In this document: positions 962-59,341 of the stretch, in pieces | Layout of the letters: each line of letters starts with the position of its first letter | How positions within the stretch are numbered: position 1 is the first letter of the stretch | DNA from: a virus | Taxonomy: Duplodnaviria > Caudoviricetes | Direction: 5' to 3' (one strand) | DNA length: 63,293 nucleotides | IMG/VR virus record: IMGVR_UViG_3300036980_000702 | Coordinates: 1-63,293 of that record | The notes under the pieces: generated by a model | What the model was told of the DNA's origin: nothing | The model's input: the letters and a program-made list of their open reading frames with translations, nothing else | Databases searched by the model: none | Position numbers and translations under genes: made by a program

Positions 962-987
962 AAAGGCCTACCGGGAGCCTCAATCCC
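962..987 (+). ncRNA. Repeated H-type pseudoknot motif, copy A (second stem partly degraded)
   Basis: AGGC-cta-CCGGGA-GCCT-caa-TCCC; matches copies at 38601, 39414 and 42239. Confidence 0.6.
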
Positions 988-6732: not shown

Positions 6733-6780
6733 AAATAAACCACCTTTCAAAAATTAAAGGGAGGTTTTTGGCCTCCCTTT

Positions 6781-13194: not shown

Positions 13195-14574
13195 CTAACT
13201 ATTTAGTAATGGATATTTTTGTTTAACCAAAGAAACAAAGGTAATTTTTTTGGTCTTTGCTTCTTTTAAAAGTGCATCTATTTGAGGTTGAGTTATATTA
13301 CCTGGCAAGTTAATTCCTTGATAAGAAATTGTTTTATTCCCCGGTTTATTACTGATCAAAGACCGCGGTCCGCCGCCAAACAATATTCCCATCGGGCTTC
13401 CTTGACCAGGTTTAAATTTAACTCCCGGTTTATTCTGGGAAACTATTAGTTTTGTTCTCGGGTCCATGACTTGCTCGGTTCCCCAAACTTGGCCAACATT
13501 ATTTTCTGCATCTTGCACCAATTTATTATAAGCTGCATCGCTGCCAAGTCTTTCAATGATCCTGCTCCGATTATTTTTTAAGTCCTGAAGATAATCTTCC
13601 GGCCTCTTATACTGATCGGCCACCGCTGACAAACTATTTTTAAAGTTAATCTGATCCTGAGTGGGTTGTCCCGGTTTCGTTTCTTTGGAGGTTGGGTTGT
13701 AAGTACTCCAAATATCTGCTTCCAACTTCCTCTTTTTAAGATCAAGAAGTGGATCGGCAGTTTCGGTCTTTGGTATAAATGACTTCATAGCATCGTCAAT
13801 AACTCCATTATCACCCGTCTGATAAGCAGTAATCAAGATTCCTTTTCGTGGGTCATTGTCGGGAATTAAGTTAATAAACGATTCATATGCGGCGTTTTTC
13901 TGCCCCTGCAACGCTTGACCGGATTTATACTTCACGCCCTCACCCATCATATCAAAGTAGTCTTTTTTACTCAAATTTTGTGAAATAAGATTACCCGGTC
14001 CCTGTTCTTTGTAAGTATTCCCGGTAGGCATATCAGAAATAGTTTCATATTTAGTAACCTCTTGACCCGGAGTCCAGAAAAATCTCTCATATGGGGTTCC
14101 TTTAAACTGATCAGCAATTTCCGGAGTCATGGTAATATTATTTGCGGCTTCAAGTTTCGCCTTTTCTTTGTCACTATTCAATTTATCAAGCATCGAAAGA
14201 TAATCATTTTTAGAAATAGAACCAGGTAAGGTAACGTCCTTCATCTCCGTCGCCCCGGTGATATTAGTGGGAGTGGTTTCCTTCCCCCATAAGAACGGTT
14301 CAAACTGAGTACCTTTAAACTGATTGGCTATTTCCGGGGTAATCTGCATTTGGGAACCAGCCAGAATATCATTCTGCATTTTAGCCCGTTTTAATTCCTC
14401 ATCCTGAAGCAGTTTATTCCAATCATCCATATTTTTTTGTCTTTGCTGCGCGTCTATTTGTGCTTGTCCCTGATTATATCCATTGTACATATTAGAACCG
14501 CCGCCCGCAAGAGCGACGAACGGAAGGGCATCTTTGATTATTTTTCCCCAATCCCATTGAGCCATATTTATCAA
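13195..14574 (-). CDS. Putative ejection (internal virion) protein with an internal repeat
   Basis: Position, Q/G-rich N-terminus, duplicated TPEIAxQFKGT motif. Confidence 0.6.
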   Translation of the reverse strand: MINMAQWDWGKIIKDALPFVALAGGGSNMYNGYNQGQAQIDAQQRQKNMDDWNKLLQDEELKRAKMQNDILAGSQMQITPEIANQFKGTQFEPFLWGKETTPTNITGATEMKDVTLPGSISKNDYLSMLDKLNSDKEKAKLEAANNITMTPEIADQFKGTPYERFFWTPGQEVTKYETISDMPTGNTYKEQGPGNLISQNLSKKDYFDMMGEGVKYKSGQALQGQKNAAYESFINLIPDNDPRKGILITAYQTGDNGVIDDAMKSFIPKTETADPLLDLKKRKLEADIWSTYNPTSKETKPGQPTQDQINFKNSLSAVADQYKRPEDYLQDLKNNRSRIIERLGSDAAYNKLVQDAENNVGQVWGTEQVMDPRTKLIVSQNKPGVKFKPGQGSPMGILFGGGPRSLISNKPGNKTISYQGINLPGNITQPQIDALLKEAKTKKITFVSLVKQKYPLLNS

Positions 14575-29992: not shown

Positions 29993-30621
29993 CCCCATAA
30001 CTCCCTACTAACTGCTTCGATTGTGTCATCGATGACATCAAAAAAGGAATGGGGTTGCTCTTGGGGATTTTCGTGATATATCCCCTGCCGTCTTTGGTAT
30101 TCGGCATAGAGGTATTTACGGTATTCGTCAGATGGACTATAAACTTCCTCCCTAACAACCTTCCATCCCTTCATTTCCTCTTCAACCCGTTCCTTCGCCC
30201 AGGATTCGATCTCTTCCGGGGTGTAGGGGTCGGGGTGATTGTATTCACGAACATAAGAAACTATGGAAATGTAGTGTAATTTATAGTCATCGGTTATCGA
30301 AATTTCAGAAGAACCTTTAAGCCGATTGTAGTATTCATTAATCTCTTCTTTGGTATTAAAAAGTTTCGCATGAGTTTTTCCGTCATTCGTTGTAAAAAAA
30401 ACTTTATGAGGTTCTGGTTTCTTGTAATTATCATGTTTTCCCTTCCAATACTCCAAGCGTTCAGCGCAGAAAGCGGGGAAGGGAACTTGGTTTGATTTCA
30501 ACTTTTCCTGAGCAAATCTTTCTGCTTGAGCTGGAATTGTTTTTTGAAGACCTTGAAGTTTAGCATCTAAAATATCGTTTTTAATCCGTAATTCGTTATA
30601 ATCTTTCTTGCTTATAAACAT
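29989..30621 (-). CDS. Hypothetical protein (MFISKK start)
   Basis: AGGAGGG RBS, 210 aa. Confidence 0.7.
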   Translation of the reverse strand: MFISKKDYNELRIKNDILDAKLQGLQKTIPAQAERFAQEKLKSNQVPFPAFCAERLEYWKGKHDNYKKPEPHKVFFTTNDGKTHAKLFNTKEEINEYYNRLKGSSEISITDDYKLHYISIVSYVREYNHPDPYTPEEIESWAKERVEEEMKGWKVVREEVYSPSDEYRKYLYAEYQRRQGIYHENPQEQPHSFFDVIDDTIEAVSRELWG

Positions 30622-30646
30622 AGACCCTCCTGATTGTTTTATTTCT

Positions 30647-30832
30647 CTACTCTTTTTTTAATTCGTCATATCGTATCCGCAAATTCAAAACATCTTGATA
30701 TGAACCACTCCATCCATAATCTCCGGGATTAGCTGTATTGATAGTACTACCTAATGCAGCAGTAGCGCAACCAGCCAATTGAACTTCTAATTGTTCGACT
30801 CTTTTTTTCAGTTCTTTCTTGCTTATAAACAT
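30647..30832 (-). CDS. Hypothetical protein (MFISKK start)
   Basis: AGGAGGG RBS; QLAGC...YGWS.SY motif. Confidence 0.7.
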   Translation of the reverse strand: MFISKKELKKRVEQLEVQLAGCATAALGSTINTANPGDYGWSGSYQDVLNLRIRYDELKKE

Positions 30833-30850
30833 TTGGCCCTCCTAAGTTTT

Positions 30851-31072
30851 CTATTTTACTCTTTTCATTTTAAAAACCGGATACACACACAAACCACAAT
30901 ACGGGTGCATTCCCCTAATTAAGGGCTGTTCGCAATGTTGACATGCAAAACCCCTAAGAACCATCATTGCAGTGGTTTTAATAGATATACTATTTTTCTC
31001 TTTACAATGCGGGCAGTTAAATTCATAATCAATCGTTGTAGTTGGTTCCTCTTGTTTTTTATCCCAAAACAT
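30851..31072 (-). CDS. Zinc-ribbon protein
   Basis: CPHC...CQHC motifs; RBS present. Confidence 0.65.
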   Translation of the reverse strand: MFWDKKQEEPTTTIDYEFNCPHCKEKNSISIKTTAMMVLRGFACQHCEQPLIRGMHPYCGLCVYPVFKMKRVK

Positions 31073-32890: not shown

Positions 32891-34507
32891 CTATAAAATA
32901 TCACTTGGACTGACCTTTTTAATCCCCGATTGTAGCCGAGTATTCCGATAGACAAATGCTTCTCCGGATTCTGCACCGTACTTCTCGACGATGAGGTCGT
33001 ATTCGGATTTAGTTGGTGCCGGGTAATCTTGTCTTAACTCATTTAGCGCCTGGCTCGTTGTGTCAGCCTGATCCTTATAACTAGATTTTGGAAATGCCGT
33101 CATTTCAGCCAAGTACTCCTCGACCCATGGAAATAAAGCGGGATGAGGTATATAAACATTTCCAGATTCAATAAGATAACTCACTGCCGCCAATCTGGCA
33201 ATTTTATCACCATCTGGCTCGCGTGGAACTATCCCGGATATTTTCCTTTGCAATGTTTTAATCGCCGCCGCTCCGTTAGCTTTCTTTTCAACTAATTTGT
33301 GCGAAGTATCAGGATGTTTGATATTTAGGTCAATGAAAGCCTCTAGCGTTTTAGGAAAGTCCATTTGTTCTCTAATCTGATCAAGCAAAAATCTATCAGC
33401 TACCCACTGGCCCCATTCCTCCCCAACTACAAAAGAAGAGTTTTCCGTATCATCAAAACTCATATCCCAAGATTGAATTTTAATATTAAACTTTTCAGGG
33501 AGATCGATTATCGGACAGCTAAAAAATGACCCATCTTCCATCTTAACGAGGATAGATGGTAATTCCCTTCCCTTTGGTTTCCAATATCTCCACCAATGAC
33601 GCTTAATCATTCCTCCACCTCTAGGAACCGGCCTTTGCTGATATTGTCCAGCATAAGCATAACTACCAAGACTTTTCTTGTAACTTTCAACTTCCTGTCG
33701 CCCGATTCTTTCGGGCCAAAGCAATTCTTTTTCTTCGGTGCGAGGATCATTAAATCCTATCGGGCTGATTACCATTGCCTTTTGCTCATATTCCATAGGC
33801 AAACATAAATGAATATATCCGGCTTGTTTTAAAGCTTCTCCAGAAACATCTCCTTCATGTATCCTTTGCATAACTACGACAATAGATCCAGTTTTAGGGT
33901 CGTTTAGTCGAGAGGGGATAACCTCTTTAAACCACAAGATAGTTGATTCCCGAATTGCTTCTGATTCCCCATCAATTACATTATGGGGATCGTCAATGAC
34001 TATGATATCTCCACCTTCTCCAGTTCCCATTCCACCTGTTGAAGTTGATTGCCGGTATCCTGTTTTATTGTTCTCAAACCGCTTCTTCTCATTTTGGTCT
34101 CCGGTTAACTGGTAAACATCTCCCCAGTTTTTCTGATACCATTCGGATTGAATAATGCGTCGACATTTTAAACTGTCTCTTGTGCTCAGAACGTCAGCGT
34201 AAGAAGCAAAAAGCCACCGACAAGATGGCTTTCCATGTGGCCCCCATACCCAGGTTGGCCAGAAAACAGCCACCGAAAGTGATTTCATACACCGGGGAGG
34301 GATATTAATTAATAATCGCTTGATTTGACCGTCTGTAACAGCTTGTAAGTGTTCGCTGATTGCGTCAAGATGCCAGTTAGATATAAATAGTGTGGCCGGT
34401 TCGACCACGTTCCAGGCTTGTTTTCCATAGTCAGCAAGACTTCTCCGGCAAAGTTCCTTCTTTAACGCCTCTTCTACTGCCGGGAGTTCGTTAGGGTTTA
34501 AGTTCAT
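32891..34507 (-). CDS. terL: Terminase large subunit
   Basis: INIPPRCMKS (Walker A), IVIDDPH (Walker B), VVMQRIH, YQQRP, SWD, EKKANG, DQADTTSQ. Confidence 0.95.
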   Translation of the reverse strand: MNLNPNELPAVEEALKKELCRRSLADYGKQAWNVVEPATLFISNWHLDAISEHLQAVTDGQIKRLLINIPPRCMKSLSVAVFWPTWVWGPHGKPSCRWLFASYADVLSTRDSLKCRRIIQSEWYQKNWGDVYQLTGDQNEKKRFENNKTGYRQSTSTGGMGTGEGGDIIVIDDPHNVIDGESEAIRESTILWFKEVIPSRLNDPKTGSIVVVMQRIHEGDVSGEALKQAGYIHLCLPMEYEQKAMVISPIGFNDPRTEEKELLWPERIGRQEVESYKKSLGSYAYAGQYQQRPVPRGGGMIKRHWWRYWKPKGRELPSILVKMEDGSFFSCPIIDLPEKFNIKIQSWDMSFDDTENSSFVVGEEWGQWVADRFLLDQIREQMDFPKTLEAFIDLNIKHPDTSHKLVEKKANGAAAIKTLQRKISGIVPREPDGDKIARLAAVSYLIESGNVYIPHPALFPWVEEYLAEMTAFPKSSYKDQADTTSQALNELRQDYPAPTKSEYDLIVEKYGAESGEAFVYRNTRLQSGIKKVSPSDIL

Positions 34508-34631
34508 TTGGTTTCCATCCAGATCCAAAATCGAAACACAAGTAACTCTAAAATAAATCCGCAGGCACATATTAAAATAACTTGGTAATCATATAGATCA
34601 AAATGAAAGTTTAACGATTCTATGATTTCTT

Positions 34632-37401: not shown

Positions 37402-37656
37402 TTAATCCAACGCCTCATCCGGCGGTAATATTTCTGGTTTAGCCGGACCAGTAAAAACGACCGTTGCGTTTAATTTTTTATTATTCTCTTTTTTCCTCTT
37501 TTTCCTCTTTCTTCTCCTCTCTAAACAATCCTCAAGTTCTGAGACGATCTGCGCGTTCATGGTCCGCCGATCCTCCTTGGCTGCCTGTTCGATCCCCCTT
37601 TTAACATTCGCCGGCAGGGAGATAGTTGTCCTCAAAATATCTTCACTTGTCATCAA
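37402..37656 (-). CDS. Arc-family RHH repressor
   Basis: TTISLPANVKRGIEQAAKEDRRTMNAQIV. Confidence 0.8.
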   Translation of the reverse strand: MMTSEDILRTTISLPANVKRGIEQAAKEDRRTMNAQIVSELEDCLERRRKRKKRKKENNKKLNATVVFTGPAKPEILPPDEALD

Positions 37657-37729
37657 AAATCATCACCTCGCCATTAATTATACTCCTTTCGCCCCTACAA
37701 ATCAACAAAAAATAATTTGAAAAAGGTAG

Positions 37730-37758
37730 TTGACAATACCCCGGTAGTGTGGTATCAT
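37730..37758 (+). promoter_or_regulatory. Repeated cassette promoter, copy 1
   Basis: TTGACAATACCCCGGTAGTGTGGTATCAT. Confidence 0.85.
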
Positions 37759-37791
37759 AAATTATAAATTAAATTTGAGGGGGAGAAAACA

Positions 37792-38592
37792 ATGGCAAAC
37801 CAAATAGTAGCAAAGCAAATCCATCCCAACGAGAGTGCAATCTTACACAGTATCAGTTACGACGCCGGAACGGATTGCGGACCGGCAGCGGGAATGAAAT
37901 TGACAGGCGGACGCCCAACCATTAATAATGGTCAAAAGGTTGTATTGTTTGACCAAAAGATTAAAGGCCAACGAATGGGACTCAAGTACGAAACCCGACC
38001 GGAACTAGCCGCCCTAGTGGCCGAATGGGAGGCCATCGAAGCCGAAAAACAGGCCAAAAGGGAATTTGAGTGGAAAATTAAACGCTTGGCGGAAGAAACT
38101 ATCGATATCCCTTTGGTAGCGGCCATGAATACCGAGGCCGACAGATTACGGGGACTCATTCCCCGAGAAAATATCGAAGTGACTATTACTCAAACCGGAG
38201 ATCTTGACGGTGACCCGATCCTTAAATATGAGGTAGACGGATTTGAGATTAGTTGGAGTGATGTAACTGTACATGGTTGGGCAACTGCGATTCGCCCCGG
38301 AGCAATGGGAGCATTTAAATCGGTTTGCGTAGCCTCTATTAATCTTGCAAAGCTGGCCGAACTTATGACGGCCAGGGATGAGGCTGAAAAAGCGGAGATT
38401 GAAGCCACCCAGAAAGCGGAGGAGGAGAAAATCCGGAAGTTCGAAACTGCCAAAACTACTGGTGAAAAAGTCCTCCTCCGTAAATGGACGGCTGATTGTA
38501 ACGACCACCGCGAGGAATGCAACGTGGACATAATTACCGAATGGGCAATGCCAGATGGCACAACCAAGACCGAACGGCAGCACACCTGGTAA
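37792..38592 (+). CDS. Accessory hypothetical protein
   Basis: GAGGGGGAG RBS; C-terminal KFETAKTTGEKVLL...EECNVD...AMPDGT..TERQHTW domain. Confidence 0.8.
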   Translation: MANQIVAKQIHPNESAILHSISYDAGTDCGPAAGMKLTGGRPTINNGQKVVLFDQKIKGQRMGLKYETRPELAALVAEWEAIEAEKQAKREFEWKIKRLAEETIDIPLVAAMNTEADRLRGLIPRENIEVTITQTGDLDGDPILKYEVDGFEISWSDVTVHGWATAIRPGAMGAFKSVCVASINLAKLAELMTARDEAEKAEIEATQKAEEEKIRKFETAKTTGEKVLLRKWTADCNDHREECNVDIITEWAMPDGTTKTERQHTW

Positions 38593-38600
38593 ACACTCAA

Positions 38601-38627
38601 AGGCCCACCGGGAGCCTCAATTCCGGT
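38601..38627 (+). ncRNA. Repeated H-type pseudoknot motif, copy B
   Basis: AGGC-cca-CCGGGA-GCCT-caa-TTCCGG. Confidence 0.65.
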
Positions 38628-38653
38628 AAAAAATAAAAAAACGGAGGAAAAAA

Positions 38654-38938
38654 ATGAAAAAATACGATTGGCAAACCATTCAGATTTGGAACGGTTCGGA
38701 TGATAGAACAAAACTCGTATGTTGTGATTCGCCCCATCAATACACCCAAAAGGATATTATCGAGGCTTTGGCAGAATTTAGACAGACAAACGGCATGGGT
38801 GGTTGGTTTTTCGATTTTGACGGTAGAAAACACGAAGATCCCGCCGATGCCTCTACATGGGGACCTAAATCGCCCAATGAAATTAATTGGGCTGGTTTTC
38901 CTGTTTTTAAAGATGGCGAGTGGGTTTTGTCTGAATAG
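38654..38938 (+). CDS. Accessory hypothetical protein
   Basis: GGAGG RBS, 94 aa. Confidence 0.7.
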   Translation: MKKYDWQTIQIWNGSDDRTKLVCCDSPHQYTQKDIIEALAEFRQTNGMGGWFFDFDGRKHEDPADASTWGPKSPNEINWAGFPVFKDGEWVLSE

Positions 38939-39033
38939 TCGGCGTAGGAATCGTGCGGGGGCGCAAGCCCCACCCTAAGAAGGGGATTAGGAAAGGGAGA
39001 GTTGATAAATGGATTCCGGAGGAGGGAAAGTAA

Positions 39034-39198
39034 ATGAACAAGGCGGGAAAAGTTGATTTTGAACAATATTTTTACACTTTCTTTAGTTGGTCATCTTTGG
39101 ATTTTAATAGAAATTACAGGCATATAAAAACATTATACCTCAAAGATTACTTAAATTATTGTAAATCAATCGACCAAGAACCCGTTAGAGCAAGATAA
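39034..39198 (+). CDS. 54-aa accessory protein (absent from the ORF track)
   Basis: GGAGGAGGG RBS; MNKAGKVDFEQYF... Confidence 0.55.
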   Translation: MNKAGKVDFEQYFYTFFSWSSLDFNRNYRHIKTLYLKDYLNYCKSIDQEPVRAR

Positions 39199-39233
39199 CC
39201 GACATCTAACCGGAAAAAAGGAGGGAAAACAGG

Positions 39234-39359
39234 ATGGTACATATGGTAAAATTTCTTCGATATTGGGATAACAACGGACAACACGACCGAATTTTTTCCC
39301 AAGAGTTGTTGGAAAAACTTCAGAAAATCAAATGTAGGTATATTACTTGGTCAATGTAA
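39234..39359 (+). CDS. 41-aa accessory protein (absent from the ORF track)
   Basis: AAGGAGG RBS; MVHMVKFLRYWDNNG... Confidence 0.5.
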   Translation: MVHMVKFLRYWDNNGQHDRIFSQELLEKLQKIKCRYITWSM

Positions 39360-39413
39360 AGTTGCGGAACTGGGTTGGTAAAAATCGAATGAGGCACACT
39401 TGGTAGTATTCAA

Positions 39414-39439
39414 AGGCCCACCGGGAGCCTCAATCCCGG
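39414..39439 (+). ncRNA. Repeated H-type pseudoknot motif, copy C
   Basis: AGGC-cca-CCGGGA-GCCT-caa-TCCCGG. Confidence 0.65.
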
Positions 39440-39463
39440 CTTAAGGAAAGGATAGTGCTGGGA

Positions 39464-39619
39464 ATGACACTCCGAGAAGCAGAAAAATATTTAGCCGATG
39501 TAGCTATGAATGGGATTAAATCCGCTAGTAATACTGATAAAGAAGAAATTTTACTTCGAAAAGAACTTGGCTTAGATATGGAATCAGTAAGGGCATTCGC
39601 TAAACAACATATGTTTTAA
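39464..39619 (+). CDS. 51-aa accessory protein (absent from the ORF track)
   Basis: MTLREAEKYLADVAMNG...; purine-rich RBS. Confidence 0.5.
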   Translation: MTLREAEKYLADVAMNGIKSASNTDKEEILLRKELGLDMESVRAFAKQHMF

Positions 39620-39634
39620 AATAAAAAAGTTCTC

Positions 39635-39686
39635 TTCCTTTTCCTTTTTATCTCCCCGCAGGAGGGATAAATTAGCGAAGGAGGAT
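39635..39686 (+). repeat. 52-bp cassette-head repeat (hairpin plus RBS), copy 1
   Basis: 51 of 52 bases identical to 41406-41457. Confidence 0.9.
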
Positions 39687-39691
39687 TGACG

Positions 39692-39868
39692 ATGATAAGA
39701 ATACAATACCAGACTGACGGCGATTATCCGTGCCTTGTAACACAAGGTGCTGATAGCGTAGAGGACGCCGAGAGACTGATTAAAGTTCTTAAGGCGGCCG
39801 ATGAAGCGCACGGTCATCAAACTCGACGTTATATAATTATTAAAACCAAGGAGGATCACAATGCCTAA
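39692..39868 (+). CDS. Cassette cargo protein
   Basis: AAGGAGG RBS inside the repeat. Confidence 0.65.
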   Translation: MIRIQYQTDGDYPCLVTQGADSVEDAERLIKVLKAADEAHGHQTRRYIIIKTKEDHNA

Positions 39869-40091
39869 ATCAAACGACCGCCAACAACTACAGATCTGGT
39901 TTGTCGGCGGGGAACAAATGAAAATGAAAAGAAACCTAGATTTGGAATCCTTTAATACCGGGGTTCCGCGAGGGGAAATCATCCGGGAATCAATTTCTAT
40001 CCGCAACTACATCAAAAAAATATTGGACGAAGAATCATCTCTAGCAGAAAAAACCCTGCTAGACCTGGTAAAAAAACATTTTGAAAAATAG
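39861..40091 (+). CDS. RHH-like regulator, paralog 1 (MPK...KKHFEK)
   Basis: Paralog of 41951-42181; beta strand then helices (RQQLQIWF...GEIIRESI). Confidence 0.65.
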   Translation: MPKSNDRQQLQIWFVGGEQMKMKRNLDLESFNTGVPRGEIIRESISIRNYIKKILDEESSLAEKTLLDLVKKHFEK

Positions 40092-40092
40092 A

Positions 40093-40121
40093 TTAACAAT
40101 ACCGCGGTAGTGTGGTATCAT
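40093..40121 (+). promoter_or_regulatory. Repeated cassette promoter, copy 2
   Basis: TTAACAATACCGCGGTAGTGTGGTATCAT; contains the palindrome TACCGCGGTA. Confidence 0.8.
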
Positions 40122-40172
40122 TGAAAATGTCAGACGGGGACGCCGCCTGAACAAACGAGGAGGTAAGCAAAA

Positions 40173-40634
40173 ATGACAAACGAAATTTACAAAACCATCA
40201 AAATAAAGGGAATCAAGGTGGAATGCATCGATGAAACAGACGGATTCACGCTGGATATTAATGACCAAAAATACTACTATGACAACATTTCAATGGGAAT
40301 TGATAAGATCATTAACGGAGAAAAATATTTTCACACTATCGAGGAAATTATGTCAGTAACTAACTTCGATCTCCCGGAAACCTACCACCTTACCAGCGGC
40401 GGCTGGTCAGAGAAAATCACCGCCAAAAACATCCAAGAGGCTCGGGACATAGCTGATAATAGAATCGGCTACAACCAGGAAGACATGAAAGACATGAATA
40501 TTCTTGATGAAGACGGCAATCTGATTTGTTACCGGTATTGGAGCCAAACTTTGGGAGGTTTGGAGGATCAAGAGGACGCAATCGAATATGGTACTTTTGG
40601 ATACTACACCGATTGGACGGACGCAGGGGCCTAA
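40173..40634 (+). CDS. Acidic accessory protein
   Basis: GAGGAGG RBS, 153 aa. Confidence 0.75.
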   Translation: MTNEIYKTIKIKGIKVECIDETDGFTLDINDQKYYYDNISMGIDKIINGEKYFHTIEEIMSVTNFDLPETYHLTSGGWSEKITAKNIQEARDIADNRIGYNQEDMKDMNILDEDGNLICYRYWSQTLGGLEDQEDAIEYGTFGYYTDWTDAGA

Positions 40635-40642
40635 TCGCCCCA

Positions 40643-40693
40643 CCCTCTCCCGCAAAGCGGGACTGATGAGCCGGATGATTCCCGGCGAAAGGG
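40643..40693 (+). ncRNA. Hammerhead ribozyme (type III)
   Basis: CCC-UC / stem I UCCCGC-aaa-GCGGGA / CUGAUGA / stem II GCCGG-augauuc-CCGGC / GAAA-GGG; the catalytic core is complete. Confidence 0.9.
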
Positions 40694-40714
40694 AAAAATT
40701 AGGAGGAAAGAAAA

Positions 40715-41239
40715 ATGTTAACAGAATTAATTTCCCCGACACACAAAACCCCATACGTTTTAGATTATATCCTTTCAAAAGGTTTAATCCGGTCGGGATT
40801 GACCGGAACAATCCGGATCGAACTTAAACACACTTGTTTTTACGGCAGTAAAGATTTTTACGTATATGTGGAAAACCTATCTTGTTCGGAAAGCCACTGG
40901 ACTGATTCCGTAAATTTTAGGATTGATGGAATCATTCCGATGCATGCAACCGAAGCCGGAAAACTATCATATGGGTTTGGTTGCGGATGTGATACTAGTC
41001 ACGGAGACCAATTTCCATCCGAAGCCCCTCCGGATAATCCGGGTTGGGACGATTATAAAAAATATGATGGCGAAGGATCTGTTGTAAAATGCTGGATAGA
41101 TTCCGCCCACATAGAGATAGACATTAGCCAAATCCCAAGTGGCGATCCCGCATTAGGAATAATTACAGTATTAATCGAGACTTTGTTGGCCAGGCAATGC
41201 TTCTCAGAGGAGGTAAAGAAAGATGGGAAAATGTCATGA
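40715..41239 (+). CDS. Accessory hypothetical protein
   Basis: AGGAGG RBS just downstream of the hammerhead. Confidence 0.7.
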   Translation: MLTELISPTHKTPYVLDYILSKGLIRSGLTGTIRIELKHTCFYGSKDFYVYVENLSCSESHWTDSVNFRIDGIIPMHATEAGKLSYGFGCGCDTSHGDQFPSEAPPDNPGWDDYKKYDGEGSVVKCWIDSAHIEIDISQIPSGDPALGIITVLIETLLARQCFSEEVKKDGKMS

Positions 41240-41396
41240 ATGTCTCAAAAAAGAATTAGATGAGTTGGAAACATTTAAAGAACATGAGTGCATTAATTGT
41301 GGTGAAGTTTATTATGGAAATGATTCTAATTTTTGTGATTCTTTTTGTAAAGAAGAATATAAAATTATGGAGGAAACGGCGAGAGAGTGTGTTTAA
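41223..41396 (+). CDS. 57-aa Cys-rich protein (absent from the ORF track)
   Basis: GAGGAGG RBS; MGKCHEC...CINCG...FCDSFC. Confidence 0.65.
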   Translation: MGKCHECLKKELDELETFKEHECINCGEVYYGNDSNFCDSFCKEEYKIMEETARECV

Positions 41397-41405
41397 AAAC
41401 ATTTT

Positions 41406-41457
41406 TTCCTTTTCCTTTTTATCTCCCCGCAGGAGGGATAAATTAGCAAAGGAGGAT
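41406..41457 (+). repeat. 52-bp cassette-head repeat, copy 2
   Basis: 51 of 52 bases identical to 39635-39686. Confidence 0.9.
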
Positions 41458-41461
41458 CGTC

Positions 41462-41938
41462 ATGAAAACGGGATATGTAAACCCCAAACTGCTTGCAAAA
41501 AGAGACCAATTAATTTTACAAGTAGAAACACTCAATCGGAAATTACATGGCGGAGCCACTGCGGAAGTGGCCAAATATTTCCATTTAGGGATGGTGGGTG
41601 GATCTGGAAAACCAGTACAGAAATTAAACCGGGTCAGGTCTCAGGAGATTGATCGCCGGATTGATGGTGCCGTCTTGGCTGTCAATCTCCAAAAAGAACT
41701 TAATTATGTCGAATTTCAAATCCGATATCAGGAAACTGCCCCACTGAGGGCCGCAATAAAAGATGCGGCAGTTGAAAAATTGGGGAGTCTATTTGATACT
41801 ATCGAAGTTGGAGATCAAATTGATATTGGCGGGAATTGTCCATTTACCGTGATTAAGAAAAATAGAAAAACAGTTGTTACGGAATCTGGAAGCAAATGGA
41901 CTGCGGCGGAAATTTTTAAGGTAATTAAAAAATCTTAA
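41462..41938 (+). CDS. Cassette cargo protein with an SH3-like C-terminus
   Basis: IEVGDQIDIGG...VIKKNRKTVVTESG. Confidence 0.7.
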   Translation: MKTGYVNPKLLAKRDQLILQVETLNRKLHGGATAEVAKYFHLGMVGGSGKPVQKLNRVRSQEIDRRIDGAVLAVNLQKELNYVEFQIRYQETAPLRAAIKDAAVEKLGSLFDTIEVGDQIDIGGNCPFTVIKKNRKTVVTESGSKWTAAEIFKVIKKS

Positions 41939-41950
41939 AGGAGGATCGCA

Positions 41951-42181
41951 ATGCCTAAAAAAATAGTAGACCCCAACCGCCAGCAATACAATATTTGGTT
42001 TGTGGGGGAAGATCAAATCAAACAAAAACGGGCGTTAGAGCTTGAAACATTCCAAACCGGGATCCCCATGGCTGAAAATATCCGAGAGGCAATTGCAATT
42101 CGGGCTTATCTCAAAGATTTTTTTGGGGACGAAACCGTAATTCCCCTGCTAGATCTAGTAAAAAAACATTTTGAAAAATAG
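41951..42181 (+). CDS. RHH-like regulator, paralog 2 (MPK...KKHFEK)
   Basis: Paralog of 39861-40091. Confidence 0.65.
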   Translation: MPKKIVDPNRQQYNIWFVGEDQIKQKRALELETFQTGIPMAENIREAIAIRAYLKDFFGDETVIPLLDLVKKHFEK

Positions 42182-42182
42182 A

Positions 42183-42211
42183 TTGACAATACCCCGGTAG
42201 TGTGGTATTAT
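42183..42211 (+). promoter_or_regulatory. Repeated cassette promoter, copy 3
   Basis: TTGACAATACCCCGGTAGTGTGGTATTAT. Confidence 0.85.
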
Positions 42212-42238
42212 AAGATATAAGATAAAAATGTAAACATA

Positions 42239-42262
42239 AGGCCCACCGGGAGCCTATCCCGG
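42239..42262 (+). ncRNA. Repeated H-type pseudoknot motif, copy D
   Basis: AGGC-cca-CCGGGA-GCCT-a-TCCCGG. Confidence 0.65.
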
Positions 42263-42283
42263 AATATGGAGGAGGTAAGGTAG

Positions 42284-42550
42284 ATGAAAAAAATATTTAT
42301 TAGCTCTTTTAGCGGTAAGTTTGATAAAGTAGTCACCTTGTGCTTAACAGCAGGAGGAAAAAGGCTTGGTGAAATAAACAAGTACCACAATGATCAAGGG
42401 GAGATTTGGGAAGTTAAAAGTTTACCGTTTTTCCCTCGCCGTACCCCCGTAAAATGGATGGAACATTTAAATTGTCATGTTGGCGGACAGCCGATTTGGC
42501 ACCCATTTAACTCCGCGATTTGCGATGGACGCCAAACATACTGTATTTAA
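42284..42550 (+). CDS. Accessory hypothetical protein
   Basis: GGAGGAGG RBS, 88 aa. Confidence 0.7.
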   Translation: MKKIFISSFSGKFDKVVTLCLTAGGKRLGEINKYHNDQGEIWEVKSLPFFPRRTPVKWMEHLNCHVGGQPIWHPFNSAICDGRQTYCI

Positions 42551-42570
42551 CCAGGGGCCTAACCGCCCCA

Positions 42571-42627
42571 CCTCTAACGTACCGATGCCGGGAACCAAAG
42601 CCCCGGAGGAAGAAGACGGATGGGAGG
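42571..42627 (+). ncRNA. Twister-ribozyme-like element (variant or degenerate)
   Basis: P1 CCUC/GAGG, UAA, P2 CGU/ACG, P4 CCGGG/CCCGG with loop AACCAAAGC, GA-UGG pairing with CCA; two core deviations. Confidence 0.45.
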
Positions 42628-42750
42628 AAAATAAGGAAAGGAAAAATACTATGCGGAAAAAACTTGTCTTTTATGCCGTTAAATTAATCAGAGGCTTTGG
42701 CCTCCGTCCTCCGTAGACGCCGGAATTAAAAATATTATAATTAGTAAAAC

Positions 42751-42780
42751 AAAAGCCCGGTTAATCCGGGCTGATTTTAT
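42751..42780. terminator. Bidirectional terminator closing the accessory region
   Basis: AAAAGCCCGG-ttaat-CCGGGCT between convergent transcription units. Confidence 0.75.
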
Positions 42781-42823: not shown

Positions 42824-43234
42824 TTATATTATTATCATTTTATATTCCGGATATCGTTTTTCAAACAACTTTCGCTTTTGTTTTGCAATTTGACTCCAAA
42901 ATCCTTTTGCTTCATGAATTTCAATTAAAACATCTTCGCAAGGTGGAAGTATATCAAAATTATATTTTATTATCACGAAATCTGCTCGATAATAAATTGG
43001 TTTTATCCATTCTTCTCCTTTCCAATATCCCTCATTAATTAAAAAGTTAACTTGTGGGAAAAAATCAATTATCTCTCCTGCCAGCTTAAGCAGTTTAAGC
43101 TGGCAATAATAATCCGCCTCTTTTTTTGAATCCCAAATCCTCCCATCAACTTCGGTTTTTTGACTATGATATTTTGATCCTTTAAATTGAGTTTTATTTC
43201 GGTATTCCGCCGCCGACATTCGCTCCTGTTTCAT
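42824..43234 (-). CDS. DUF1064 family endonuclease
   Basis: SKYHSQKTEVDGRIWDSKKEA...YRADF...EAKG. Confidence 0.85.
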   Translation of the reverse strand: MKQERMSAAEYRNKTQFKGSKYHSQKTEVDGRIWDSKKEADYYCQLKLLKLAGEIIDFFPQVNFLINEGYWKGEEWIKPIYYRADFVIIKYNFDILPPCEDVLIEIHEAKGFWSQIAKQKRKLFEKRYPEYKMIII

Positions 43235-53969: not shown

Positions 53970-54896
53970 TTAACCTAAATTGGTAAATTTGTATTGGATA
54001 TAATCAGCAGGTTCAACGGTATACCCATTTCGATGAATCCATTTTCCAGAGATTAAAAAATTACCAATGCTTACCCGTTCCCGCTTATCAAGTTTCTTTT
54101 TAATGAATTTATCAATTTCATCAAACTCTTTTGATACCGGATAAAGTTCCGCTCGTCTCTCGACCATCTCCAAAAATTCGAGATCATCAATAAATTCCAA
54201 TCCATCCCTAACCATTGGAGGTAAACAAACATGATCAAAAGCGCAATACTCACAAACCGAATAATCATCAATTCTTTCCGGTAAAGTGTTGTTTGCTACA
54301 TGGTTTTCCACTCGTTCGGTTTTTTGGAGAAGAGATTCCATATAAACCAAATCAAGTTTTATCGGTATAATTTTCGGCTTAAATCTAGGAATGGATTTGA
54401 TGTAAAAAAATCCCTCCTCCTCGGCTTTGATGTAAAGATAGGTAATAAGCTGAGCTGGGTACTTTCTAATCCATGATTTTTTAGAGTTAAAGAAATCCTG
54501 GAGGCAGTTAAGGCGGTCGAAGTCCAAGATGTTTAACCCCTTTATTTCCCCAGTGATTACAACCCCGTCACCAAAGTCAACCCGAACGTCAAGGTGAGCG
54601 GAAATTCTCGGTCTGCTTTCCATGATCGCTTTGTCGGGTTCCGGGCGATAAACCCGGAATCCTGCTTTTTCCAAATCTTTGATTGCCAAATCTTCAACCA
54701 TGCGGCCACCCTGAAAAACAAACTCTAATTCCGGGTCATGTGGTTTCCGATCAGCCCAATTTACAATGGAATGAACCAAATAACGTTCACATGGATGACC
54801 GATTTCCGAAGCTCGGACAACATATTGAGGCATAATTTTTATGTCAGATTTTACCGAATCATAGATCCTATTTAGGATCAGTTTTGGATCCATCAT
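53970..54896 (-). CDS. Cas4-like PD-(D/E)xK exonuclease
   Basis: RASEIGHPCER, HLD...EIK, Q...Y, C-terminal CEYCAFDHVC. Confidence 0.8.
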   Translation of the reverse strand: MMDPKLILNRIYDSVKSDIKIMPQYVVRASEIGHPCERYLVHSIVNWADRKPHDPELEFVFQGGRMVEDLAIKDLEKAGFRVYRPEPDKAIMESRPRISAHLDVRVDFGDGVVITGEIKGLNILDFDRLNCLQDFFNSKKSWIRKYPAQLITYLYIKAEEEGFFYIKSIPRFKPKIIPIKLDLVYMESLLQKTERVENHVANNTLPERIDDYSVCEYCAFDHVCLPPMVRDGLEFIDDLEFLEMVERRAELYPVSKEFDEIDKFIKKKLDKRERVSIGNFLISGKWIHRNGYTVEPADYIQYKFTNLG

Positions 54897-55680
54897 TTGA
54901 TTTTGCCGCCTTCCATTTGTCATATCCTTCCAAAACCTTGTCGTAAACTTTAGGAATCTGTTTTTCAGTTAAGGATTCGATCTTGGATTTGCCGGGGACT
55001 TCCTTTCCGTCACCAGCAGTAAAAGAAGTTAATTTCACCAGCAAGGCAGCACATTTTGTCTCATCATTGTTACACATTTCTTTAATCATATCCCAAATTT
55101 TGGTTCGTTTATCTTGAAATTCGGGCGACATTTCCTTATTATCTTTGGAATCATATTCAACCCCTTTAATTTTTGTAACATCCAAACCAGATTCCCTTAA
55201 TTCATCGATAGTAATGTTTTTGAGACCAAGTAAATGACCAATTCCATTTCCGATACAATTGGTTAATGCTGATTTTTGAACATCGCCTTTATCAATTTCC
55301 GATAATGGTTTATCGATACCTCCCTTGCCTTTGCTAAAAAATGAATCCCGACTAGACCGGGAACCAATCGCTTCAACCTCAATATCTTTCATCGAAAAAT
55401 AACCTTTATACTCGAATCGAAAATGACCATCGTCTTCCAAAAAATAGGAGCACGGATCAATCCTCCATGAAATCCCATACAACCTAGCTATTTTAGCGCT
55501 GCCGGACTCTTGTAAATAAGGTTTACCATTTTGTAAAATCCAATCAGAAGGATTACTTACCTTGAAGGCGTAAATTCTTATTTTTCGAATTGCCTCAATT
55601 CTTTTTTCAGCGTCCCTAGCTATTTCAATCAATCGGTCATCATATATTGCCGGTAGTTGGTTTTGGTCAATATTTTCCAA
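54868..55680 (-). CDS. Putative single-strand annealing (recombination) protein
   Basis: KPYLQESGSAKIA motif; adjacent to the exonuclease. Confidence 0.55.
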   Translation of the reverse strand: MENIDQNQLPAIYDDRLIEIARDAEKRIEAIRKIRIYAFKVSNPSDWILQNGKPYLQESGSAKIARLYGISWRIDPCSYFLEDDGHFRFEYKGYFSMKDIEVEAIGSRSSRDSFFSKGKGGIDKPLSEIDKGDVQKSALTNCIGNGIGHLLGLKNITIDELRESGLDVTKIKGVEYDSKDNKEMSPEFQDKRTKIWDMIKEMCNNDETKCAALLVKLTSFTAGDGKEVPGKSKIESLTEKQIPKVYDKVLEGYDKWKAAKSNDGSKTDPK

Positions 55681-58584: not shown

Positions 58585-59341
58585 TTACCATCCTTCCTTG
58601 ATTCCAATAATATCTTTTAATTTAACATAACATTGATTTCTATGTTGTCTAAGAGTAAATCCAATACAAACTTCATCAAACAACCACGGTCCAGGATCAC
58701 GAGATATCCATCCAAAACCAATAGTCGAATAGCCATTTACAAAATGTTGTAATTGCACTTTAGTTCCTGCCGGGGGTACCTGATTCACTTCCATTTTCTC
58801 CTCCTTTTTCCATTCTTAAAATAAATTGCCTTAAAGAATCACCAACAGTCATTTTTTGTTTATTGTTCATTTCTCCCAAAATATTACAATCAAAGCCGCT
58901 AACCATAAATAAACTATACCTAAATAAAATATCGCCTTGCAAATTCTAACTAAGATGGGACAGGCAATTTTATTTTTCTTCATTGTTTTCCTCCGTCAAC
59001 TCCAATATTTTTCTACCATTTAATCTATCGAGCAAACTGAGTTCAATGAATTTATCATCAGCCAAAAAAGCTCCAATCGAAGCACCTCCGGAAGAATTAA
59101 TAATATCACTATCATATTCCTCTTTAGGATTCATGTTTCCTCCTTTATTTTTCTTCATTGTTTTCCTCCTATGCCACTTTTATTTTTTAGTTTGACAATT
59201 GCAAATATAAACCCATATACAATTTTCTTTTTTTTCGTACTCCGAAGGTTTCCCGCAATAATTACATAATAAAGTTATCTCATTATGTAATCCACATCGA
59301 CATTCTATTTTAGGTTTCATTCATTCTTCCTTCCTTCCATA

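Follow-up and report, generated by a model that had tools for sequence, protein, structure and literature searches.

Layout of the plus-strand island

The window (the whole stretch of DNA that was analysed) is a complete phage genome of 63,293 bp, its record bearing direct terminal repeats and self-blastn placing a 127-bp terminal repeat at both genome ends. ORFs of at least 100 aa between about 4.5 and 62 kb lie nearly all on the minus strand, the exception being an island of around 5 kb (37,707-42,772), where 14 ORFs run on the plus strand, grouped in three tandem units (Table 1). The preliminary description had listed about 13 plus-strand genes in two rounds and a partial third; these 13 ORFs are present together with a further one of 21 codons, and units 1 and 2 are organised as proposed, each closing with a 63-nt leader repeat, one gene and a 76-aa paralog. 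The third round has neither the 63-nt repeat nor the paralog, and holds no regulator gene.

Every unit opens with the same near-consensus sigma-70 promoter, in which the palindromic spacer is identical, and a promoter-like site on the minus strand (37705-37677) abuts P1 and points the other way. No plus-strand terminator-like site was found adjoining P2 or P3, and for this reason the transcripts from P1, P2 and P3 should all end at the closing hairpin.

Genome-wide, self-blastn returned 10 repeat pairs at E <= 1e-3, one being the terminal repeat, and seven of the other nine touch the island. The 52-nt core of the leader repeat is identical at 51/52 positions when read from the sequence, as had been described. 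In the single sequencing run found to hold this stretch, which may be the window's own source, the Logan contigs break at both copies of the 63-nt repeat, and a shared 42-nt repeat piece forms a separate Logan record with a word depth of 45 against 18-22 in its neighbours, although such depths are not copy numbers.

Table 1. Features of the island, its flanks and the second plus-strand cassette (repeat identities are from self-blastn of the window).
Feature	Position	Strand	Description
Second small cassette	559-1560	plus	same operator-like type: TTGACA, CACCGCGGTG in spacer, then TATTAT
Pseudoknot copy 4	964-987		in 559-1560 cassette; stem 2 weakened
CopG-like gene	1225-1539	plus	in 559-1560 cassette
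Arc-like gene	37402-37656	minus	downstream of promoter-like site 37705-37677
Promoter P1	37707-37758	plus	A/T-rich UP-like tract, TTGACA, 17-nt spacer ATACCCCGGTAGTGTGG, TATCAT
g1	37792-38592	plus	266 aa; 41 metagenome homologs
Pseudoknot copy 1	38601-38626	plus	stem 1 AGGC/GCCU, stem 2 CCGGGA/UUCCGG
g2	38654-38938	plus	94 aa, acidic, ORFan
Slot 1	38958-39033	plus	hairpin GGGGC-GCAA-GCCCC and ACC, then ~60 nt up to g3 ribosome-binding site
g3, g4	39034-39359	plus	54 aa and 41 aa, both ORFans
Pseudoknot copy 2	39414-39439	plus	within 39394-39439 block
g5	39455-39619	plus	54 aa, ORFan
Leader repeat copy a	39624-39686	plus	polypyrimidine tract, inner hairpin, Shine-Dalgarno
g6	39686-39868	plus	about 58-60 aa, ORFan; 8-nt overlap with paralog a
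Paralog a	39861-40091	plus	76 aa, MPK...KKHFEK; orphan
Promoter P2	40093-40121	plus	TTAACA-17-TATCAT; spacer with perfect palindrome ACCGCGGT
g8	40173-40634	plus	153 aa, net charge -18 (strongly acidic), ORFan
Slot 2	40626-40693	plus	hairpin 40626-40641, ACC, type III hammerhead 40643-40693
g9, g10	40715-41396	plus	174 aa and 57 aa; 17-nt mutual overlap
Leader repeat copy b	41395-41457	plus	
g11	41462-41938	plus	158 aa, basic, ORFan; 12 nt upstream of paralog b
Paralog b	41951-42181	plus	76 aa, putatively RHH-like
Promoter P3	42183-42211	plus	TTGACA-17-TATTAT
Pseudoknot copy 3	42239-42262	plus	within g13 5' leader
g13	42284-42550	plus	88 aa, ORFan
Slot 3	42554-42627	plus	hairpin 42554-42569 and ACC, then twister-like RNA 42571-42627
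g14	42651-42716	plus	21-codon ORF
Two-way terminator-like hairpin	42754-42772		closes island, faces DUF1064 gene
DUF1064 gene	42824-43234	minus	faces island-closing hairpin
Repeat pair	40054-40118 / 42144-42208		93.8% over 65 nt
Repeat pair	39622-39686 / 41394-41457		92.3% over 65 nt
Repeat pair	P1 / P3		85.5% over 69 nt
Repeat pair	P1 / P2		86.8% over 53 nt
Repeat pair	38580-38626 / 39394-39439		87% over 47 nt
Repeat pair	40624-40648 / 42552-42575		92% over 25 nt

Promoters, palindrome and 76-aa paralogs

The three promoter-like sites with TG-extended -10 boxes lie at 37730-37758 (11/12), 40093-40121 (10/12) and 42183-42211 (11/12), and with the copy in the 559-1560 cassette they bring the promoters of this type to three in the island and one outside it. 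Their 21-nt spacer is matched three times in the window, where shuffles give an expectation of 0.00, and for the octamer ACCSCGGT there are 12 strand-matches, spread over eight sites, four of which are promoter spacers, compared with 2.32 +/- 1.87 in shuffles (0/100 shuffles reach 12). The ACC(G/C)CGGT palindrome inside ATACC...GGTAT is taken here to be a putative operator for a small dimeric repressor. A scan of genome contigs gave no match to the spacer, and metagenome contigs gave one to the 21-mer, again a spacer (TTGGCA...TATTAT), followed after 22 nt by a gene for an RHH_1 antitoxin (Pfam 1.4e-5) and then by a PIN gene (2.8e-12); a single match is about the chance expectation for 20 fixed bases, and its meaning is argued by context only.

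The two 76-aa proteins are clear paralogs (blastp 5e-26, identity 54-59%), with an interior that is 58% identical (103/177) and saturated at synonymous sites (pS 0.76), and the final 11 codons of paralog a fall within the UP-like tract of P2. Relatives of the pair were absent from 5.8 billion clusters and 1.84 billion representatives, Pfam returned no family at E <= 0.1, a PDB sequence search no RHH entry at E <= 10, and hhalign against the RHH protein of locus L034 a probability of 13%. Modelled as a single chain, the protein comes out all-helical in AlphaFold, in a poor prediction (pLDDT 59.6). The homodimer model passes, with a score of 0.59 against 0.00 for the best control; in calibration, 20 of 30 proteins whose solved structures are one-chain pairs reached that mark, as did 1 of 23 with single-chain structures, counts which hold only roughly since the input alignment was our own and had two rows. 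Contact agreement between its runs is at least 87%, with pLDDT of at least 73, and the predicted contacts (residues 8-14 against 14-8, helix 40-49 against helix 40-49) follow the RHH pattern. The modelled dimer leads us to read the paralogs as probable ribbon-helix-helix-like (RHH-like) dimeric regulators.

RNA elements and cargo genes

The claim that many intergenic gaps hold a pseudoknot, ribozyme or hairpin was confirmed, with three pseudoknots and a canonical hammerhead core borne out in the island; the supposed twister is rejected by the twister models. Pseudoknot copy 1 begins 8 nt past the g1 stop and finishes 27 nt before the g2 start, whilst upstream of copy 2 lie 13 nt resembling the 3' end of g1 (...HTW stop). 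The pseudoknot 18-mer has four matches in the window at up to three mismatches against 0.01 expected; its core has nine matches in viral contigs, with the complementary downstream strand in 9/9, and 55 in cellular genomes, with only one clear and two doubtful cases. Both leader copies are predicted to fold with the Shine-Dalgarno paired (z -1.73 for copy a, -2.01 for copy b), and of the five positions at which they differ two lie in the Shine-Dalgarno helix, with pairing kept at both.

The slot 2 hammerhead, with predicted cleavage after C40647, has all core positions and three stems, stem III being of four pairs only. At 25.7 bits it falls short of the Rfam gathering score, 48.5 bits, and its E value was 0.034 in one search and 9.1e-5 per genome. 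The stop codon of g8 sits in the loop of the preceding hairpin, and similar GC hairpins precede both the hammerhead and the twister-like RNA. The latter has the helix order P1-P2-P4; as a twister it was not accepted, the twister-P1 model giving no match at E <= 10 and the twister models being silent. No ribozyme was recognised in slot 1, and an 18-nt pattern from it had no match in viral contigs. RNA-level processing of the transcripts, as previously suggested, is reasonable, since the hammerhead has a full core, lies between genes 6 nt past a GC hairpin and has a published parallel in prophage operons, where, in the cited part of that work, hammerheads flank genes including ardA (PMC3088659).

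That the cargoes are unrelated was confirmed by all-vs-all blastp of 17 proteins (14 from the island and three from the 559-1560 cassette, g6 and gL2 being compared in the wrong frame), in which the 76-aa proteins were the sole paralogous pair. Cargo scans found 0/10 proteins above the Pfam cut-off and a PHROG match for 1/10, and g12 had no family in a Pfam scan. The Cys-rich g10 gave a weak treble-clef match. No cargo protein matched a known anti-defence or other family, the metagenome homologs of g1 apart; among the cargo genes g1 alone belongs to a family, many members of which end ...HTW. The absence of a recombinase, also noted before, holds for the 11 scanned proteins g1-g11 (g13 and g14 lay outside the scan). 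In a comparison of seven loci g1 was the only island ORF to match, in five of the seven, and in the locus examined closely (L090) the g1 cassette (5' leader and gene) adjoins a ParB-like gene, has a different promoter and is accompanied by none of g2-g14.

Proposed regulation, possible recombination and related systems

The reading favoured here, with a confidence somewhat above even, is that of three tandem co-directional accessory operons of early or establishment type, autoregulated in the manner of Aca14 or Reg576 and with a suspected counter-defence role, the repeated framework being in our reading mainly shared regulatory sequence. All three units would be transcribed from copies of a very strong host-type promoter (UP-like tract, -35 box, 17-nt spacer, TG-extended -10). 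The RHH-like proteins encoded at the ends of units 1 and 2, a position typical of Aca-type autorepressors, would on accumulating shut down every promoter copy, including the one at 559, and so give a pulse of expression following DNA entry. Since the phage carries a ParB-like gene and no integrase was found among the scanned ORFs, expression in a prophage state may also be considered, and what is said here of cargo function and timing amounts to guesses. The long messages would be cut by the hammerhead after 40647, and by the divergent twister-like RNA maybe near 42575, each cut site being 6 nt beyond a GC hairpin that would then close off the upstream fragment at its 3' end. The compact pseudoknot, upstream of three ribosome-binding sites, may tune translation of individual genes, and the conserved leader would pair with the Shine-Dalgarno ahead of the last cargo gene and regulator.

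In the cited sections, Aca14 is an RHH protein that represses the anti-defence operon it belongs to and neighbouring ones (PMC13551039), and the p576 plasmid protein Reg576, likewise RHH, represses four promoters of establishment genes (PMC6294495). The island resembles these systems, as there presented, in its small dimeric RHH-type regulator encoded in the operon (here predicted), in a repeat element over a strong promoter (an inverted repeat for Aca14, a dual heptamer motif for Reg576), in one operator before several neighbouring operons (four promoters in p576, four here) and in small, diverse cargo mostly of no known role. It differs in that no family is detectably related in sequence to the 76-aa proteins and their operator binding is a prediction, that no known anti-defence gene is in the island, that the regulator's last codons double as the upstream tract of the next promoter, and that RNA elements punctuate the operons. 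Conserved sequences preceding early anti-defence genes within one archaeal-virus genome, to which a repressor is presumed to bind in the excerpt cited (PMC11065993), are comparable, although the promoter here is bacterial sigma-70 rather than archaeal BRE/TATA and the genes are in operons rather than single. As in the prophage ribozyme clusters (PMC3088659; review PMC6765202, in the parts cited), a polycistronic accessory operon has a hammerhead between its genes and a second ribozyme-like RNA nearby, and cutting of long messages into pieces differing in stability or translation has been proposed there; the island, however, has one clear hammerhead only, a minimal type III that scores under the gathering threshold, and every slot has a similar GC hairpin and ACC ahead of it.

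The preliminary description saw instead a gene-shuffling platform. That the island is chiefly such a platform, like T4-type PeSL regions, with repeat exchange inserting, deleting and swapping cargo, is a possible but rather unlikely account, and the release of small circles of 1,771 bp (between leader repeats) or 2,090 bp (P2 to P3) is similarly doubtful. Identity in the framework blocks is 61/65 and 60/65, compared with the 103/177 of the saturated paralog interior (Fisher p = 2e-8 and 1.5e-7), and P1, presumably functional, is only about 86% like P2 and P3, so function alone does not demand 94% identity. The g1-type scrap at pseudoknot copy 2 and the g1 cassette found elsewhere likewise hint at exchange. 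PeSLs, in the cited portions of PMC2839356 and PMC4122927, are also repeated promoters of sigma-70 consensus type, in which an AT-rich tract on the upstream side holds the upstream stop codon, located before ORFans in a variable region, and recombination between copies is proposed to drive gene turnover; yet they number about 50 per genome, against three (plus one) promoter copies and two leader copies here, their stem-loop terminator is absent from the island, and this phage is unrelated to T4-type phages. No phage with the framework was found in any of the collections searched, no repeat-bounded indel or related genome pair with exchanges was seen, and neither variant joints at the repeats nor circles appeared. 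For every repeated element an individual regulatory role is also plausible, and the evident roles of promoter and palindrome, Shine-Dalgarno-sequestering leader and pseudoknot explain part of the conservation. Of the suggested phage SSAP and exonuclease, the latter has a counterpart in a Cas4-domain exonuclease (53970-54923), whereas the neighbouring 270-aa ORF had no PHROG match and gave no confirmation of an SSAP.

It is considerably less probable that the units serve the prophage state or plasmid maintenance as modules of toxin-antitoxin or exclusion type, with the RHH protein an antitoxin-like autorepressor that pairs with the product of g6 or g11, immediately upstream; that the tightly controlled leader repeat restrains a harmful partner is just as improbable. 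The only outside spacer match drives an RHH-PIN pair, g6 and g11 lie against the paralogs, the shared leader is predicted to sequester the Shine-Dalgarno before exactly these two genes, and the ParB-like partition gene without an integrase among the scanned ORFs would fit. However, g6 and g11 are unrelated to one another and to toxin families, the antitoxin gene precedes the toxin in usual RHH toxin-antitoxin modules, and the reading would account for neither the ribozymes nor the majority of the 14 genes. An old tandem duplication with no current coupling, its copies kept alike only by ordinary purifying selection and its 76-aa proteins having a task other than control of these promoters, is very unlikely too, for although the paralogs are divergent with saturated dS and the repeated blocks all look like functional regulatory sequence, the near-identity covers spacer and UP-like positions not normally fixed in sigma-70 promoters, and the palindrome is found again at 559, in a fourth promoter that is otherwise different.

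Under the autoregulated-operon reading, recombination at the repeats is plausible, as the framework is repeated in direct orientation and can serve as a homologous recombination substrate; it probably homogenised the copies and aided cargo turnover, as a by-product rather than a dedicated device. The island is a good example of already described counter-defence-style phage operons, and not a new kind of system.

Genome setting and layout of the island

The window is the whole IMG/VR virus record and carries direct terminal repeats, with 127 bp shared by both ends in self-blastn. ORFs of at least 100 aa lie on the minus strand nearly throughout from about 4.5 to 62 kb, and the island (37.7-42.8 kb) is opposite in orientation to the rest, diverging from the packaging operon at 37660-37730 and converging on a two-way terminator-like hairpin, with the sign of the GC skew reversing across it. 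Fourteen ORFs (g1-g14) were counted in the island, one more than the 13 or so of the preliminary description, and every one possesses a GGAGG-type ribosome-binding site. That description, of promoters, unrelated cargo genes, a repeat and MPK...KKHFEK paralogs recurring in rounds, proved correct in nearly all of its details, including the 51/52 identity of the 52-nt repeat core, and the layout is even more regular than it had stated. The third unit has no regulator gene.

Features of the island and its surroundings, with coordinates in the window
Feature	Position	Content or setting
Unit A		P1 - g1 - pseudoknot - g2 - hairpin slot - g3 - g4 - pseudoknot - g5 - leader repeat - g6 - paralog a
Unit B		P2 - g8 - hairpin slot (hammerhead) - g9 - g10 - leader repeat - g11 - paralog b
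Unit C		P3 - pseudoknot - g13 - hairpin slot (twister-like) - g14 - terminator
P1, promoter-like site	37730	11 of 12 consensus positions
P2, promoter-like site	40093	10 of 12 consensus positions
P3, promoter-like site	42183	11 of 12 consensus positions
g1	37792-38592	first ORF of unit A
Slot 1	38958-39033	hairpin and following RNA
Hammerhead	40643-40693	in slot 2
Twister-like RNA	42571-42627	in slot 3
Pseudoknot copies	964-987, 38601-38626, 39414-39439, 42239-42262	outside the window: contigs L005-L013 and L042
Terminator-like hairpin	42754-42772	two-way
Arc-like gene	37402-37656	downstream of the island in the sense of the phage's main transcription
HTH protein gene		downstream, same sense
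Large terminase (TerL)	32891-34570	downstream, same sense
DUF1064/resolvase-like gene	42824-43234	upstream of the island; beyond it replication genes, a Cas4-domain exonuclease and a ParB-like gene

A repeated promoter and its candidate regulator

Each of the three promoters combines a 17-nt spacer with a TG-extended -10 box, and the 21-nt spacer sequence differs among them by one base at most, with three occurrences against 0.00 expected. It holds a palindrome, ACC(G/C)CGGT within ATACC...GGTAT, and this octamer has eight sites, four of them promoter spacers (12 strand-matches against 2.3 expected, a number reached by 0 of 100 shuffles). The fourth octamer-bearing promoter, at 559, is otherwise unlike P1-P3 and heads a second small plus-strand cassette with its own pseudoknot copy and a CopG-like gene. 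This cassette (559-1560), whose putative operator is of the P1-P3 type, also has a small Cys-rich ORF, and beyond the terminator that follows it lies a small gene (1640-1815) with a product that looks RHH-like (ribbon-helix-helix) by eye. Further perfect ACCGCGGT palindromes are found at 13362-13369 and 18683-18690, within minus-strand structural genes.

Upstream of the -35 box the three promoters have in common an A/T tract (AAAAAA.A.TTTGAAAAA), which we take to resemble an UP element. At P2 and P3 this tract doubles as codons for the last residues of the 76-aa paralogs (...VKKHFEK), but at P1 it is non-coding, so the conserved tail of the paralogs is probably, at least in part, a by-product of constraint at the DNA level. 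Over the first 62 aligned codons of the pair 76% of the synonymous sites differ, which amounts to saturation, with a dN of 0.38 and an interior nucleotide identity of 58% (103/177), whereas the last 11 codons show two synonymous changes and no replacement. In the 3' part of paralog a, 40040-40063 forms an 8-bp inverted repeat (TCTAGCAG...CTGCTAGA), and paralog b has CTAGATCTAG at the matching place.

The promoter spacer had one match in metagenomes and none in genome contigs. In the matching GC-rich metagenome contig (L034, 140-500), the exact 21-mer is flanked by a -35-like TTGGCA and by TATTAT; an RHH_1 antitoxin gene follows at a distance of 22 nt, with a PIN toxin gene behind it. A single outside match is about what chance would give for 20 fixed bases; because 7 of 8 further positions in the flanks agree with the window's promoters, and an RHH gene stands behind the spacer, the match offers a lead, rather than proof, that spacers of the P1-P3 kind may be RHH operators.

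The two 76-aa paralogs, which are the candidate regulators, are the only island proteins related to each other in an all-against-all comparison, made without g6 in its correct frame or the small ORF at 1073. A profile search with them returned the window's own two proteins only, and an exhaustive version returned one window protein and P0003, a protein of 1,798 aa, at E 4.7e-4; the resemblance of P0003 consists of six stretches against the helix region of the profile. The paralogs match nothing in Pfam, PHROG or, by sequence, the PDB, where no RHH entry appeared at E <= 10. The RHH protein of L034 likewise found nothing significant in the window by tblastn (best E 1.1), and hhalign gave 13% probability for its comparison with the paralog. 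The single-chain model is poor (pLDDT 59.6); the two-copy model passes its controls, with a score of 0.59 against 0.00 for the best control. In calibration, 20 of the 30 proteins whose solved structure is a pair of one chain came up to that mark, as did 1 of 23 solved as single chains, counts that apply only roughly to a model built from a two-row alignment made here. Contacts are shared between its runs to 87% or more, pLDDT is 73 or higher, and the contacts pair residues 8-14 with 14-8 in an unbroken series and helix 40-49 with the same helix of the second copy, which is the RHH pattern. Formation of a dimer by the paralog is supported by this model, though not demonstrated. [quoted passage not shown]

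Ribozyme-like RNAs, hairpin slots and the phage pseudoknot

Aligned to RF00008, the hammerhead is of type III, with the full CUGAUGA...GAAA core, three stems (I of 6 bp, II of 5 bp, III of 4 bp), stem III open and the cleavage triplet CUC; it scores 25.7 bits, below the Rfam gathering score of 48.5, with an E of 9.1e-5 for the genome. In the minimum-energy fold, CCUC (40644-40647), 5' of the cut, pairs with the Shine-Dalgarno sequence of g9 (40684-40695) and displaces stem III, so that the predicted cleavage could free the ribosome-binding site of g9. The twister-like RNA has three nested helices in P1-P2-P4 order in its minimum-energy fold, with a z of -0.92 that is not special, and its pseudoknots can be drawn by eye only, T1 possibly as CCA/UGG and T2 with an A-C mismatch. 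The twister-P1 model (RF03160) found no match at E <= 10 in 141 nt or in the whole genome, where three candidates were scored; membership of that family was consequently rejected, and a variant or relic is possible.

Both RNAs, and the unassigned RNA of slot 1, start directly after a GGGGC-loop-GCCCC-ACC hairpin, and if a cut took place 6 nt downstream of the hairpin, the upstream message would end in a hairpin at its 3' side. The slot-1 pattern had no match in viral contigs. The slot-hairpin pattern had one, a plain 8-bp hairpin in an unrelated GC-rich phage (L004), which is uninformative; the single match of the P4-like hairpin pattern (L095) is an ordinary hairpin, and a BTnc005 match is at chance level. 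In the predicted folds of the two leader-repeat copies (z -1.7 and -2.0) the Shine-Dalgarno sequence is paired to a polypyrimidine tract, and two of the five differences between them sit in this helix, both preserving the pairing. A 60-kb viral contig that carries a g1 homolog (L091) has two candidates resembling HDV-F-prausnitzii (RF02682), at 6764-6829 and 11695-11753, with 34.8 and 34 bits against a gathering score of 44; the second is preceded by a hairpin and followed by a Shine-Dalgarno sequence and start codon, the same order of hairpin, ribozyme and ribosome-binding site as in the island.

The pseudoknot is compact and of the H-type, AGGCCYACCGGGAGCCU followed by a linker of 1-7 nt and UCCCGG. 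Nine viral-contig matches were obtained for its 17-nt core, spread over three unrelated groups or more with a GC content of 45-63%, and in all nine UCCCGG or a G-U variant lies within 10 nt downstream. All nine are positioned between same-strand genes, a few nt past a stop codon, with the next start mostly about 25 nt beyond (67 nt in L013); phage contigs bearing the pseudoknot also show pyrimidine-rich leaders of a non-Shine-Dalgarno kind. Cellular genomes gave 55 core matches, about the chance number, of which one, in a viral-looking sediment contig, has the same context and two are doubtful, the downstream strand being otherwise absent. That the downstream strand accompanies every viral match while cellular matches are near chance argues that the pseudoknot is real and specific to phages, occurring almost only in phage DNA. 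Rfam has no family for it, and the nine pseudoknot-bearing viral loci gave no match at the gathering threshold. A role in translation, or in halting an exonuclease, is conceivable. Coremin is described with two hairpins (3 and 4 bp), a loop of the YGAD type and a 10-nt spacer that is conserved (PMC6546385); on inspection these features are absent here, so that a coremin or xrRNA is an analogy only.

A more ambitious reading joins these RNAs into one device, in which the GC hairpin and ACC form a modular ribozyme socket within a self-contained expression chassis for fast-evolving cargo that is reused among phages. The RNAs plugged into it would be the hammerhead, a variant of twister that the current model misses and, in slot 1, an unrecognised class; the pseudoknot would be a new phage-wide element that shields or activates the downstream message after the cuts, perhaps by blocking a 5'-3' exonuclease, and an orphan RHH repressor family would be part of the chassis. 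Taken jointly, these propositions are improbable.

Cargo genes, recombination and relation to known systems

None of 10 cargo proteins exceeded the Pfam cut-off and one of 10 proteins exceeded that of PHROG, namely g1 through its C-terminal 57 residues. No known anti-defence gene was recognised, g1-g11 matching no named family above cut-off in Pfam or PHROG and g12 none in Pfam. Searches by tblastn with g1, g8, g9 and g11 against phages gave two partial matches only, both in Clostridium phages, g8 having only a partial match and g9 and g11 none. For g8 there is no homolog in a large protein collection, and the Atlas held nothing usable for g9 and g8; the acidity of g8 is a hint only.

The g1 family has 41 other members with 30-61% identity, and its alignment (A2) shows a conserved core with two alternative C-terminal modules, one Cys-rich and ending ...QHTW, the other ending ...YGINE; in Clostridium phage CWou-2020a the Cys-rich module is also found by itself, on a protein of 210 aa. 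Homologs of g1 occur in five viral loci. In L090 the homolog adjoins a homolog of the window's ParB-like gene, behind a different consensus promoter and with a 5' leader resembling that of g1, and in L093 its promoter carries a different palindrome. Since homologs stand behind other promoters, and no island ORF except g1 was matched in the seven loci compared (L014, L042, L090-L094), the comparison indicates that g1 and its leader are a travelling unit, put by each phage under a promoter and operator of its own. The 13 nt before pseudoknot copy 2 match the end of g1, and look like what the duplication or deletion of a g1-type gene would leave behind.

The preliminary description proposed searching viral metagenomes for the framework repeats and tabulating the cargo; the leader-repeat core had no viral match. 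The island found no match by blastn in 50,697 phage records. The terminase recovered 18 loci in IMG/VR, the best 56% identical and ending at a contig edge and the others at most 43%, and an inverted island is absent from the roughly 10 kb of sequence present upstream of TerL in L017, L019, L020 and L031 (four of the seven loci that were ORF-mapped, out of 18). In all, the blastn, terminase, 76-aa profile, leader-core and spacer searches yielded no close relative.

Within the genome, self-blastn places the island in seven of the nine non-terminal repeat pairs. The block made up of the paralog's last 11 codons, the stop and P2 or P3 is 93.8% identical over 65 nt, the leader repeats are 92.3% identical over 65 nt, and P1 is about 86% identical to P2 or P3; shorter families comprise the pseudoknots, the paralog start region and the slot hairpins. 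Direct repeat pairs outside the island lie at 30602-30656 and 30813-30865 (82% over 56 nt) and, as 26 identical nt, at 58969-58994 and 59144-59169. The one read-level source, with no RNA run beside it, was a sediment metagenome run (X1), possibly the window's own source, in the form of Logan contigs. These break at both leader-repeat copies, and the shared 42 nt form a separate record with a word depth of 45 against 18-22 for its neighbours, depths that are not copy numbers and come from a run that may be the window's own. The breaks and the depth fit a true two-copy repeat, and speak against an assembly artefact as far as a perhaps identical source can. The contig between the repeats has a word depth of 22.2 against 19.7 and 18.4 for its neighbours, and there are no joints, variants or molecule ends in the contigs, a form of data that cannot show rare forms such as circles or deletions.

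The framework blocks (61/65 and 60/65) are far more alike than the paralog interior (103/177; Fisher p = 2e-8 and 1.5e-7), which may reflect either selection on nearly every base of the 52-65-nt blocks, or homogenisation or exchange by recombination. With P1 sharing no more than about 86% with P2 or P3, function alone does not appear to demand 94%; for both reasons we think, from this one genome, that recombination has acted on the island repeats. Of the proteins scanned, g1-g11 and those of the flanking genes, none belongs to a recombinase family, in line with the preliminary description; an integron-like cassette array would call for an adjacent site-specific recombinase and attC-type sites.

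The proposal of that description, a gene-shuffling platform working by homologous recombination with processing of its transcripts, stands in part; its shuffling idea corresponds to the PeSL cassettes of T4-type phages (PMC2839356). The island shares with them sigma-70 consensus promoters, an AT-rich upstream tract and ORFans behind; its P1-P3, however, have no plus-strand terminator-like site, and the spacer offers only an 8-bp palindrome with 5-bp arms. The promoter thus fits the PeSL pattern, but neither the terminator stem-loop nor the copy number does, and the comparative evidence does not fit either.

Parallels also come from published repressors: Aca14 shuts off both its own operon and an adjacent anti-defence operon by way of an inverted repeat that covers the -10 box (PMC13551039), and Reg576 represses four promoters of establishment genes and itself, producing a pulse after DNA entry (PMC6294495). 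In sequence pattern the island likewise has an inverted repeat that overlaps its core promoters and recurs from one operon to the next. For a small DNA-binding regulator inside the operon the signs are divided: the dimer model of the paralog has RHH-like contacts, but there is no family match, the monomer model is poor and the third unit has no such gene. The island differs in that the PDB sequence search, with no RHH entry at E <= 10, gives no sign of homology of the regulator to Aca14 or Reg576, and in that no known anti-defence gene is among g1-g11 as scanned with Pfam and PHROG. By analogy, the regulatory logic of the island matches that of published RHH repressors of early operons. One conserved regulatory sequence before unrelated early anti-defence genes is also described for archaeal viruses (PMC11065993). 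Prophages in which hammerheads border a single gene or a short run of genes have been on record since 2011, and the anti-restriction gene ardA is flanked by one such set (PMC3088659). The most likely account of the island is an autoregulated array of accessory genes with messages processed at the RNA level, whose repeated regulatory parts would also invite recombination.

No new principle is revealed by the island, the same building plan having been published already. What it offers is the union, within 5 kb of a complete genome, of a repressor-type promoter family, an orphan candidate regulator, a compact pseudoknot shared with unrelated phages, and a clean hammerhead and a borderline twister-like RNA that each directly follow a look-alike hairpin. 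The three hairpin slots and the phage-specific pseudoknot are most worth following. The role of self-cleaving ribozymes in phages and bacteria is still an open question (PMC6765202), and a second one that the island touches is how the fast-evolving counter-defence genes of phages are organised and timed. It is a convenient test bed for cleavage, for the binding of repressor to promoter and for screening 12 unknown small proteins.
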